64,000 bases of DNA from a virus (Duplodnaviria; Heunggongvirae; Uroviricota; Caudoviricetes), in the IMG/VR virus record IMGVR_UViG_2703718787_000017. One strand, written 5' to 3'. Made by a program: the position numbers. This document shows, one piece after another, positions 27,001-30,000 of this stretch (positions are counted from its first letter, which is position 1; every line of letters begins with the position of its first letter).

Positions 27001-30000
27001 TTACTGAGCGCGGTGTACACGGTGGAACATATGGCGGGAAGTTTGTTGCTTATGATTATGCAGCATGGCTAAACCCCGGATTTAAATATGCAGCCTATAA
27101 AGTCCTGGATGACTACTTCACCGGAGAACTTCAGCATCGCAACAGCTTAAGTGCGCAGCTCAATATGAAGTGCCATGAGTTTGATCAGAAAAAAGATATG
27201 GCGAGCTTCTGTGGACAAGGGCTCGCGGCATGGCGCTATACGAAGCCAGTGTTGGTCGCTGAGATTAACTCCTTGGCTAACCAGCTGCAGATTACGATCC
27301 CCGGGCTTCCGGGATGAGTGATCGTGTCATTGAATGCGCCTCCAGAGCGGGGCGCGACTTCTCAGAGTTCATGAAAGGCGAGAAGGGCATGATGGAAGCA
27401 TTGGCCTCGGTGGATGAGTTTGGCGAGCAGCTGCGCCTCAACGGCTGTGTCAATCATCACTTTGTCAGCTACATGATGCGGAACTCGATCATGCAGGCAT
27501 TCATGGACATGGCAAAAGCCGAGAGGAAAGAAGAGCGCCGGCGTAAGCGAGCGGAAGCAAAAGCGAAGTAGTTATTACAAAAGCCATTCCCTACAGAGTG
27601 GCTTTGATAATGGCTTATACCCTACACGGGATAACTTAACTGATATCCCTTTTAACGGATAAAGGCATTTCAGCCTGACATAGCCATGCGCCGCATCGTC
27701 GCCGTATTCCCGCATTAACAGAGACCGCAGCCACCTTATCTGCGTGAGTGTGCGGGGATAATCAAAAACGATGCACACCGGGTTTTCTCATTTTTCACGA
27801 GATGGGAGCGATTTCCCGCGAAGCCGCCTGTCCGGTGCGGTGGTGGAAGAAACCGGATAAAACAACCGCATTGTGCAAATATCGATCAAATATGGTGCTG
27901 CTGTGTGAAATCTGAAAAATCACAGCGGTCATTATGCATCAGTTTTTAACACAGGACGTCAGAACGTGACATGGCAAAGCTGGACTGGAAAAAGCTGGAG
28001 CAGGCATTCCGACGCGAACATGCCGAAACGGGAATAACATTACTGGACTGGTGCCGGAAGAAAAAGATTAATTACAACACCGCCAGAACCCGTATAAAAA
28101 TGGGCAAAATCGATCATGAAATTGATCATAAAACCGATCATGAAATCGATCATGACATCTCAGATGAAGAACCCTGCAATGACGCGGGTTCCGGCGATGA
28201 AAAATGCGCAAAAAACTCTGAAAAAAACTGCGCAAATTCGGCAGAAACGAAACGGATTCGTGGTTCCCGACTTTTACCACCTTCAAACGCTTTTTCTCAG
28301 CGAAACACCCACGCTGTAAGACACCGTGGATACGCGAAGTATCTTGAGGCAGATAACCTCATGGATGATGCGTCCGATATGGTGCTGTTCGATGAACTGG
28401 TGTTCACCCGGGCCCGCGCACTTTCAGTAACTAAGGCACTTAAAGGGATGTTCGCCGACCTGGAAGAGGCAACTGACGTGGAAACCCGTGTTGCTCTTTA
28501 CGACAAAATACTCAAAGCTGAACAGGCCCTTGACCGGAATATTGCCCGTATCGAGTCAATTGAACGCTCATTGCTGACGCTGGACGTCCTGGCTGAGACA
28601 GCACCAAAACTTCGTGCTGACCGGGAAAGAATCAACGCCGCCAGAGATAAACTCAGAGCTGAAACCGATATTCTGACCAGCCAGCGTCGGGGCGTTGTTA
28701 CGCCTGTCAGTGACATCGTGTCATCGCTGCATGAAATGAGTAATTCGGGGAGACTGGATGACATTCCGGAAGAATGAACCGCGATGTGATGAGCCGTCAG
28801 AAATGACCGAGGCTGAACAACGTCTGTTCATCATGACTAAACTGAGCAATCCCTGGTGGCGGCTCAATCATCTCTACAAAATACAGAACGAAAAAGGTGA
28901 ACTGGTCACCTTCAGAATGCGACCGGCGCAGCGCCAGTTGTTCCGGAGCATGCACAATAAAAATATTATCCTGAAAGCGCGCCAGCTGGGATTTTCCACA
29001 GCCATTGATATTTATCTTCTCGACCAGGCATTATTCATTCCGCATCTCAAATGCGGGATCGTCGCTCAGGATAAACAGGCTGCCAGTGAAATTTTCCGCA
29101 CAAAAATTGCTGTACCGTTTGATCATCTCCCTGACTGGCTGAGAGCCTCATTCACCATCGTTGAACGTCGTAGCGGTGCCAGCGGTGGCTATATCCTGTT
29201 TGGTCACGGCTCGAGTATCCAGGTGGCAACCTCATTCCGTTCAGGTACGGTGCAGCGCCTGCATATCTCAGAGCACGGCAAAATTTGCGCGAAATATCCG
29301 GCTAAGGCGAAAGAACTGCGAACCGGTACGCTTAATGCCGTCTCTGATGAATGCATTATTTTTGATGAGTCCACAGCTGAAGGCGTGGGTGGTGATTTTT
29401 ACGAGATGAGTAACCGAGCACAGGAGATCACAGCATCAGGCTTATCGTTGACGGCACAGGATTATAAATTCCATTTTTACGCCTGGTGGCAGGATCCTAA
29501 ATACAGCGCCCGAGTGCCGGAAAGCGGGCTGAAGCTGTCACGGGAAAAAATGACGTATTTTTCTGCGGTTGAGAAGGCAATGAACATCACGCTTACTGAT
29601 GAACAGAAGCAGTGGTACATCAATAAGGAAACTGAACAGCGTGAGGAAATGAAGCAGGAGTTTCCCTCAACGCCACAGGAGGCGTTTCTGACGTCCGGAC
29701 GACGTGTGTTCAGTGCCGAAAGTACGTTGCAGGCAGAATCATTCTGTTCGCCACCGCTGATTGTTTATGACATTGAACCTGTTACAGGAAGGAAGACTAA
29801 AGCGCAGTCTCTGCGTGACGGGAATAAAGCCGAACAGCACCGGACGCTGATGAATTATCTGCTGGTCTGGGAGCTACCGGATCCAGATGAAGAGTATGTC
29901 TGCGGAGCGGATATTGCTGAGGGGCTTGAGCACGGGGACCGCTCATCGCTGGATATCATCAGATGCAGTAATGGTGAGCAGGTGGCCCACTGGTTTGGTC

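Follow-up and report, generated by a model that had tools for sequence, protein, structure and literature searches.

Why should four Dam methylation sites stand exactly 12 bp apart inside a small-terminase gene? The question is raised by terS, the gene for the small terminase subunit TerS, in a 64,000-nucleotide stretch of a virus of the Caudoviricetes (IMG/VR record IMGVR_UViG_2703718787_000017; this whole stretch is referred to as the window). An earlier note, made from the nucleotide sequence, had drawn attention to four copies of GATCAT in this gene and proposed a methylation-sensitive packaging (pac) site resembling that of phage P1, with a protein-level IDH-x repeat as the alternative and a comparison of the repeat across related phages as one way of checking. 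Our analysis makes it likely that the array is the recognition block of the phage pac site, an interpretation drawn from homology, position, conservation of the hexamer core and family-wide co-variation. Shiga toxin (Stx) phages would then probably possess a P1-like hexamer pac block.

The window represents a 933W-like Stx-converting phage of the Sepvirinae. Over positions 27900-28800 the identity is 100% to Shigella phage Ss-VASD and 99.3-99.7% to 933W, VT2-Sakai and the other Stx phages listed; in total, 222 phage records match this segment. The terS gene occupies 27971..28777 on the + strand and encodes a protein of 268 amino acids (aa), all of which (residues 1-268) are covered by a match to PHROG 370 ('terminase small subunit', E=3.8e-125). 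The gene is annotated as small terminase in 933W (L0112) as well as in many further Stx phages.

The GATC array in terS

Direct reading and motif counts place GATCAT at 28112, 28124, 28136 and 28148, and these coordinates, together with the PHROG 370 match, confirm the earlier description of four copies at exact 12-bp spacing in the small-terminase gene. Tandem Repeats Finder delimits the array as 28107-28159 (period 12, 4.4 copies, 82% matches), and a repeat search of the window also returned four copies, in register. The 42-nt pattern of the four copies had a single match in the window, and none of 100 shuffles that preserved dinucleotides contained it. The window contains 190 GATC sites, and more than two of them fall within 50 bp only at the array. 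The array is a tandem duplication, and its four copies are not independent events.

The array lies at terS nt 140-182, directly 3' of the codons for a helix-turn-helix (HTH) segment (residues 1-46), and codes for IDHE-IDHK-TDHE-IDHD, that is, TerS residues 47-62. The unit conserved across lineages is YGATCA rather than GATCAT, the base 3' of GATCA varying freely among relatives. Written in this way, the array (28107..28159, no strand assigned) contains the hexamers CGATCA (28111-28116), TGATCA (28123-28128), CGATCA (28135-28140) and CGATCA (28147-28152), each with a Dam GATC; it is proposed as the TerS recognition block of pac on the basis of its sequence and its equivalence with the arrays of P1 (HEX4), a Salmonella lineage and P1-like elements. 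The exact P1 hexamer is found in one of the four window units, and the YGATCA core is common to the P1-like elements.

A 15-nt inverted repeat (CACCGCCAGAACCCG / CGGGTTCCGGCGATG; 28078-28092 and 28185-28199) flanks the array, its arms being 87% complementary and 92 nt apart.

Relation to PacA and the pac site of phage P1

P1 pac measures 161 bp and lies within pacA; it contains seven TGATCA/G repeats with Dam sites, the methylation of which controls cleavage (PMC10028697). In the P1 record NC_005856 it covers pacA nt 192-357 and is made up of a four-hexamer block, a middle part with the integration host factor (IHF) site and the cuts, and a three-hexamer block. The first block, HEX4, spans pacA nt 193-233, and the annotated cuts are located 43-52 bp past its last hexamer.

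TerS and PacA were found to be connected by profile matches in both directions. TerS matched PHROG 1711, the P1 PacA family, over residues 5-94 (E=3e-5), and PacA matched both PHROG 1711 (E=4e-202) and the TerS family PHROG 370 (E=1.9e-4). The two proteins gave a BLASTP E-value of 0.009, and an 11-sequence TerS family alignment compared with PacA by hhalign gave E=3e-4 over 41 columns (residues 6-46 against PacA 3-43), with W..F...G.T....N.NTAR as the common motif. These matches suggest that the likeness to P1 is partly homology and not analogy alone, the HTH segments being weakly but reciprocally homologous.

An AlphaFold2 model of TerS, built on 40 homologues, has N-terminal helices at residues 6-20, 24-30 and 35-41 with a predicted local distance difference test score (pLDDT) of 75-87. 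These helices and the PHROG 1711 match define the PacA-like N-terminal HTH segment (residues 1-46; 27971..28108, + strand), whose third and presumed recognition helix (residues 35-41, YNTARTR) is encoded at 28073-28093 (+ strand). The pLDDT is below 50 at residues 46-109 and 111-119, with the repeat inside this part, and above 90 in the long C-terminal helices (127-238). Judged by pLDDT, residues 46-119 (28106..28327, + strand) are a predicted disordered linker containing the IDHx repeat and an acidic stretch, and this prediction places the repeat peptide in the stretch that joins the HTH to the helical C-terminal part. Both the length and the sequence of the linker are hypervariable in the family alignment. 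A PDB sequence search with the family profile gave no match, and Foldseek with the TerS model returned generic coiled coils only, none with E <= 0.001.

The window array resembles P1 pac (Sternberg and Coulby) in several respects. Both sites lie inside the gene of the recognition subunit, right 3' of a homologous N-terminal HTH, and both consist of repeated YGATCA hexamers with Dam sites that stand about one helical turn apart and encode Asp-His/Gln dipeptides. With the P1-like relatives the 12-bp phasing is identical.

YGATCA arrays in other lineages

Relatives were taken from IMG/VR, GenBank phages and assemblies; the locus search, made with a narrower family alignment, returned near-identical loci only, and all counts of IMG/VR loci and gene starts given here are counts among the matches listed. 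A Salmonella lineage, whose TerS is about 60% identical and has NTARTQIK in the third helix, carries three or five YGATCA at exactly matching gene positions (141, 153, 165...) and in the same 12-bp phase; the peptide encoded there is another (SDQK, SDHK, NDHE, NDHN). Scanning IMG/VR for three YGATCA at 12 bp gave 120 loci, 16 of which have a PacA-like HTH upstream. The HTH-linked matches include 933W-type phages and two P1-like elements of ~92 kb; the latter two encode PacA-like proteins of 424 and 437 aa and carry five or six TGATCR exactly 12 bp apart.

When the repeat was compared across related phages, as the earlier note had suggested, the YGATCA core proved to be present in 36 of the 37 units compared, which come from seven lineages, with the next base free (A9, C10, G5, T13). 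The peptide varies across the same lineages (IDHE, SDQK, NDHN, RDQN, GDHN, or V-I/L-I in the other frame), and in P1, L279 and L180 some YGATCA units are read in another codon phase, giving V-I, L-I or M-I. Since YGATCA is conserved while peptide and frame vary, the conserved object is the P1 hexamer and not the IDH peptide.

The array is polymorphic in copy number (1, 2, 3, 4, 5 or 7). Four copies are found in most phages, 348 of the 387 matching E. coli records being at least 99% identical over 201 nt. Three copies were seen in 17 records and five in one locus (L035), and the arrays with one, two and seven copies were represented by single protein clusters, with the DNA confirmed for one and seven.

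In LC727843.1 and ~30 related Stx2a_JNE/PV records, terS is interrupted directly after a three-copy array (L085:3001-5100; …GATCATGACATC|TGA). The insertion in these Stx2a prophages has two open reading frames (ORFs) on the opposite strand (296 and 108 aa), such as IS3-family elements typically carry, and the shorter Stx2a prophages with terS interrupted in this way should be defective for packaging. A set of records matching the window up to 28147 only (H93-H100) was considered as a mosaic junction in the repeat, which was rejected in favour of an insertion after a three-copy array.

Other hexamers at the same gene position

Every fetched small terminase with a PacA-like HTH had a dense hexamer array at about nt 130-230 of its gene. 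E. coli relatives with TerS about 75-77% identical (e.g. PhiR12_3) carry TGCGCA in 4 + 2 copies, and several TGCGCA-type relatives have a left block together with a right pair. Relatives at about 40% identity (e.g. Aeromonas phiARM81mr) have seven TGCGCA, and three to six follow just after the HTH in Klebsiella ST11-VIM1phi8.2, E. coli PHB10 and 666R9. In Klebsiella RothD and Yersinia vB_YenM_06.16-1 five or six copies of TGCGAA/TTCGCA were found.

The counts of these other hexamers were compared with a synonymous null consisting of 3000 sequences that encode the same protein with codons reshuffled or redrawn. In most genes 0 of the 3000 draws reached the observed number, and P was <= 0.002 in the rest. 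The TGCGCA-type hexamers were present in two to three codon phases (88 distinct gene starts), one gene using all three frames (TTG-CGC-AAA, AGT-GCG-CAA and TGC-GCA-AAA). Because they occupy several codon phases and reach counts far above what the protein requires, the TGCGCA and TGCGAA/TTCGCA arrays of the relatives are, as judged from their sequences, clearly DNA-level features.

The TGCGCA-type small terminases are similar to TerS of the window in that they belong to the same family, or share its N-terminal HTH module, and have their array at the same gene position; the closest of them also share the C-terminal part of TerS and the flanking DNA. The TGCGCA and TGCGAA/TTCGCA types differ from the window in that their hexamers contain no GATC, so that Dam cannot act on them, in the use of two to three frames versus one, and in having ARRY, ARRH or AKRY in the third helix instead of ARTR. 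We propose a grouping by the motif W..F..G(I/V)..(D)WC...(L/I)NY.(T/S)A(R/K)..I/L(K/R), followed by at least three copies of one hexamer within ~100 nt. TerS of the window, with this motif and four hexamers, falls into the group, the same layout was seen in 105 distinct IMG/VR gene starts, and at least 600 IMG/VR stretches matched the HTH patterns.

Arrays of four to eight TGCGCA (a palindrome) or TGCGAA/TTCGCA, sometimes as TGCGAATTCGCA, lie within ~100 nt after the HTH segment in enterobacterial, Aeromonas, Klebsiella and Yersinia loci (L040:1501-2352, L059:1501-2391, L092:1001-2005, L088:455-1195 and L093:1001-2032). A literature search combining TGCGCA and terminase gave nothing relevant, and no published description of such arrays was found by it.

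Two TGCGCA(AA) hexamers are also present in the window, at 28205-28210 and 28229-28234 (28205..28234, no strand assigned). These TGCGCAAA copies are situated 52 and 76 bp downstream of the array, and a decayed copy, TGGGCA, is found at 28101-28106. We read the pair as a probable relic because it stands in a right flank shared with L040-type relatives and is absent from the Salmonella YGATCA lineage. Relative to the L040 type, a stretch of 12 bp (AAAAACTCTGAA) is duplicated between the two TGCGCAAA hexamers of the 933W type (28200-28236), and L042-type relatives have a single hexamer, so that this second in-frame repeat region of terS is also length-polymorphic.

Coupling of the third helix to the hexamer type

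The type of third helix was found to go together with the type of hexamer. In 100 protein clusters, ARR(Y/H) was accompanied by 2-8 A[QH] dipeptides with no more than one D[HQ], and ART(R/Q), plus one ARIR variant, by 1-7 D[HQ] and zero A[QH]. At the DNA level, 16 distinct ARTR gene starts had 4-5 YGATCA and 89 ARRY/ARRH gene starts had 5-8 TGCGCA. There was no overlap between the two pairings in either the 100 protein clusters or the 105 gene starts, and the two AKRY proteins were paired with TGCGAA/TTCGCA. The coupling is at the level of clades, so it does not constitute independent statistical evidence for each residue.

The 933W type and its relatives L040, L042 and L052 are near-identical upstream of terS and in codons 1-17, and again from about 28200, with strong divergence between. 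As delimited by DNA alignment with TGCGCA-type E. coli relatives, the divergent segment (approximately 28024..28200, + strand) comprises HTH helices 2-3 together with the array and acidic linker. It has the appearance of a specificity cassette whose DNA-binding surface and target were exchanged jointly. A broader proposal, which we put forward tentatively and rate at somewhat below even chances, is that the helix segment and its cognate hexamers form a widespread swappable packaging-specificity cassette, inherited and exchanged together and existing in at least three alphabets (YGATCA, TGCGCA and TGCGAA/TTCGCA). Under this proposal Dam could exert control only over the YGATCA allele, as found in Stx phages, the Salmonella lineage and P1-like elements, and the array copy number (1-7) may tune the efficiency with which packaging starts. 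Such pairing of HTH and hexamers in cassettes, throughout a large terminase family, is apparently undescribed.

Packaging mode

The packaging module of the window is of headful type. The terL gene (28758..30464, + strand), identified by PHROG 2 and by the terminase-annotated PHROGs 24361, 5989 and 675, encodes a large terminase of 568 aa, the presumed nuclease and motor, which would cut at or near pac. Next to it a portal protein of P22 type is encoded (30464..32608, + strand; Pfam P22_portal, E=3.9e-128), and TerL of a close relative is described by its depositors as 'T4-like headful', which is an annotation only. Pfam-A gave no match for TerL at E <= 0.01 and none for TerS, the packaging module being poorly covered by general domain libraries.

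Marinus and Poteete found 933W to be capable of efficient generalized transduction (PMC3752737). As cited there, the virion ends of 933W were unsequenceable in the original sequencing, which was read as terminal redundancy. Terminal redundancy, generalized transduction and a P22-type portal all fit headful packaging from a pac site. Published accounts of Stx phage packaging conflict on this point: PMC7566468 takes 933W and the Stx phages to be cos phages without generalized transduction, giving no data, as against the generalized transducer of PMC3752737. No paper locating the pac site of an Stx phage was found in our literature search.

The ends of GenBank records were considered as virion ends and rejected, since the end of PV189405 and related records, at the terS/terL junction, results only from their reorientation by annotators to start at terL. 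Three records of the Sato group have a common end inside terL, which we take to be a choice of coordinates and not a virion end.

In the LF82 prophage Gally, a pac peak has been mapped inside termS (PMC9928086). Such P22/Sf6-type phages, with headful packaging and a P22-type portal, have pac within the small-terminase gene, as is proposed for the window, and differ from it in having an unrelated TerS. Gally was uninformative as an experimental anchor, its TerS having 140 aa and neither a PacA-like motif nor a hexamer array. P22 itself has one asymmetric pac sequence of about 22 bp. In lambda cosB, several short repeats by the cut site (the R elements) are bound by an N-terminal winged HTH, that of gpNu1, an arrangement resembling the one proposed for the window array. 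Lambda differs in being a cos phage with nicks that are precise and staggered, in having the R elements outside the Nu1 coding sequence and in the inclusion of IHF in its site, and the comparison revealed no relationship at the sequence level.

Objections and alternative explanations

A number of points weigh against a pac function for the array. The homology to PacA is limited to ~40 N-terminal residues with modest E-values, the rest of TerS being unrelated, and TerL has no detectable similarity to P1 PacB (BLASTP E=2.7). On present alignments, TerS and PacA thus appear to share only the N-terminal module and its array, and the proteins differ in size as well (397 aa for PacA, 268 aa for TerS with its unrelated C-terminal part). 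P1 pac has two blocks (4+3) ~90 bp apart, with the IHF site and mapped cuts between them, whereas the window has one: a second GATC block was not found, the nearest other GATC sites being at 27884 and 29057, and the IHF consensus WATCAANNNNTTR (<=1 mismatch) had no match in 28000-28900, a consensus scan that could miss a weak site. Since neither the second block nor an IHF consensus site was found, the window array is not a full P1-type pac. Further, no ORF for a Dam-type (DPPY-type adenine) methyltransferase was found in the window, and the literature search found no experimental end mapping for any 933W-type phage. Variants with one or two copies exist, their source being short or partial contigs that may not represent viable phages. 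Neither is the mapping from helix to hexamer a simple code, as P1 has ARRY yet TGATCA. Finally, under the synonymous-codon null for window terS, the four GATCAT exceed an expectation of 1.3-1.6 (P about 0.012-0.015), and GATC alone, given the TerS peptide, has a P of about 0.34-0.45. Codon choice in the window alone cannot separate a DNA-level from a peptide-level cause, because a D-H peptide yields GATC anyway and the copies are recent duplicates.

The last point leads to the strongest of the alternatives, namely that the repeat is neutral or acts at the peptide level: a slippage-prone in-frame unit in a disordered linker, tolerated or serving as a flexible Asp/His-rich spacer, in which GATC is a by-product of GAT-CAY with no role in cis. 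A period that is a multiple of three, a copy number ranging from 1 to 7 and the low-confidence linker are all as this explanation would have them; GATC is expected given the peptide, and the excess of GATCAT is modest and comes from non-independent copies. We nevertheless consider it unlikely, as the peptide is unconserved while YGATCA is kept in 36 of 37 units, some of them in another frame. In relatives, moreover, the same gene position is occupied by hexamer arrays under DNA-level selection, and the corresponding hexamers of P1, which likewise encode D-H, constitute the mapped pac. The protein-level alternative of the earlier note is therefore compatible with the window taken alone, but it is disfavoured by the unconserved peptide, the conserved DNA core and the disordered linker. 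The P1-like pac site proposed in the same note has gained support from the PacA homology, the HEX4-like position, the YGATCA core, the arrays of relatives and the headful literature on 933W.

A second possibility, which we regard as improbable, is that the TGCGCA pair (28205, 28229) provides the real recognition elements and that the GATC array is accessory, as a SeqA/Dam timing device or a spacer. Two TGCGCAAA copies have been retained downstream of the array, there are relatives with a left block and a right pair, and four GATC sites at 12 bp might suit cooperative binding of SeqA when hemimethylated. However, the pair stands in a flank near-identical to that of L040-type relatives and may be merely inherited, the copy by the HTH has decayed to TGGGCA, and the Salmonella YGATCA lineage has no such pair. 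The third helix of the window (ARTR against ARRY) is also unlike that of all TGCGCA-type proteins.

A DNA role outside packaging (for example Dam-dependent regulation of terS and terL, a hotspot for recombination or insertion, or a structure that involves the flanking inverted repeat) would account for the arms at 28078-28092 / 28185-28199 that bracket the array and for the IS3-family-like insertion directly after it in several defective Stx2a prophages, but it is very improbable, as the family-wide pairing of HTH and hexamer and the P1 precedent favour recognition by terminase and a single insertion site is anecdotal.

A possible course of packaging initiation and a possible role of Dam

If the array is the recognition block of pac, packaging could proceed as follows. 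Late in infection TerS would assemble as a ring with its N-terminal HTH domains outside; PMC11331095 describes small terminases as rings of 8-12 protomers with N-terminal HTH segments on the outside. Several HTH domains of the ring would bind successive YGATCA hexamers, which follow each other at about one helical turn. TerS bound in this manner would mark phage concatemers and recruit TerL for a first cut nearby. Going by P1, the cut would lie tens of bp past the array, at roughly 28160-28230, and applying the P1 offset (43-52 bp) predicts it at roughly 28195-28205. From this cut, DNA would be packaged by the headful mechanism in a rightward direction, through terL. Either step, binding or cleavage, may be modulated by how far newly replicated DNA has been methylated.

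By analogy with P1, the Dam state may thus influence TerS binding or cleavage. Dam control has been demonstrated in P1, whereas here it is suggested by the P1 precedent and by the GATC contained in each hexamer. The Dam enzyme of the host would be enough to methylate the array sites, and the related phage Phi24B encodes a putative Dam (PMC3342100).

Ss-VASD, the nearest record, contains a gene for an MT-A70-family adenine methyltransferase (L087:3004-4058; Pfam E=1.3e-22). It lies in the early-left region, within 5.4 kb left of the window, beside a small ORF annotated 'adenine methylase'. Should the enzyme methylate GATC, it would bear on the Dam hypothesis.

Other features of the window

Tandem repeats of 45 and 63 nt were seen at 39048-39273 in an ORF of 845 aa (37161-39698), their units looking collagen-like (Gly-X-Y) from the consensus only. 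A single ORF of 2806 aa extends over 48759-57179; it is similar to a conserved ORF of ~8 kb and unknown function that the Phi24B paper noted in Stx phages (PMC3342100).

Implications for Stx phages and related prophages

Stx phages are the vehicles by which Shiga toxin genes spread. Generalized transduction by 933W is efficient, yet our literature search found no paper that locates the pac site of these phages. A defined pac site would predict the start and direction of the headful series, and hence which chromosomal genes near Stx prophages could be moved by lateral transduction, and it would provide a handle for engineering or disabling packaging. The Stx array would constitute a second system beside P1 for Dam control of packaging. 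If the cassette proposal is true, it would amount to a simple 'pac code' for which prophages, satellites and plasmids are packaged by which terminase. From the pairing of HTH type with hexamer type, it would also be possible to predict the pac sites of hundreds of enterobacterial prophages from their sequences alone.

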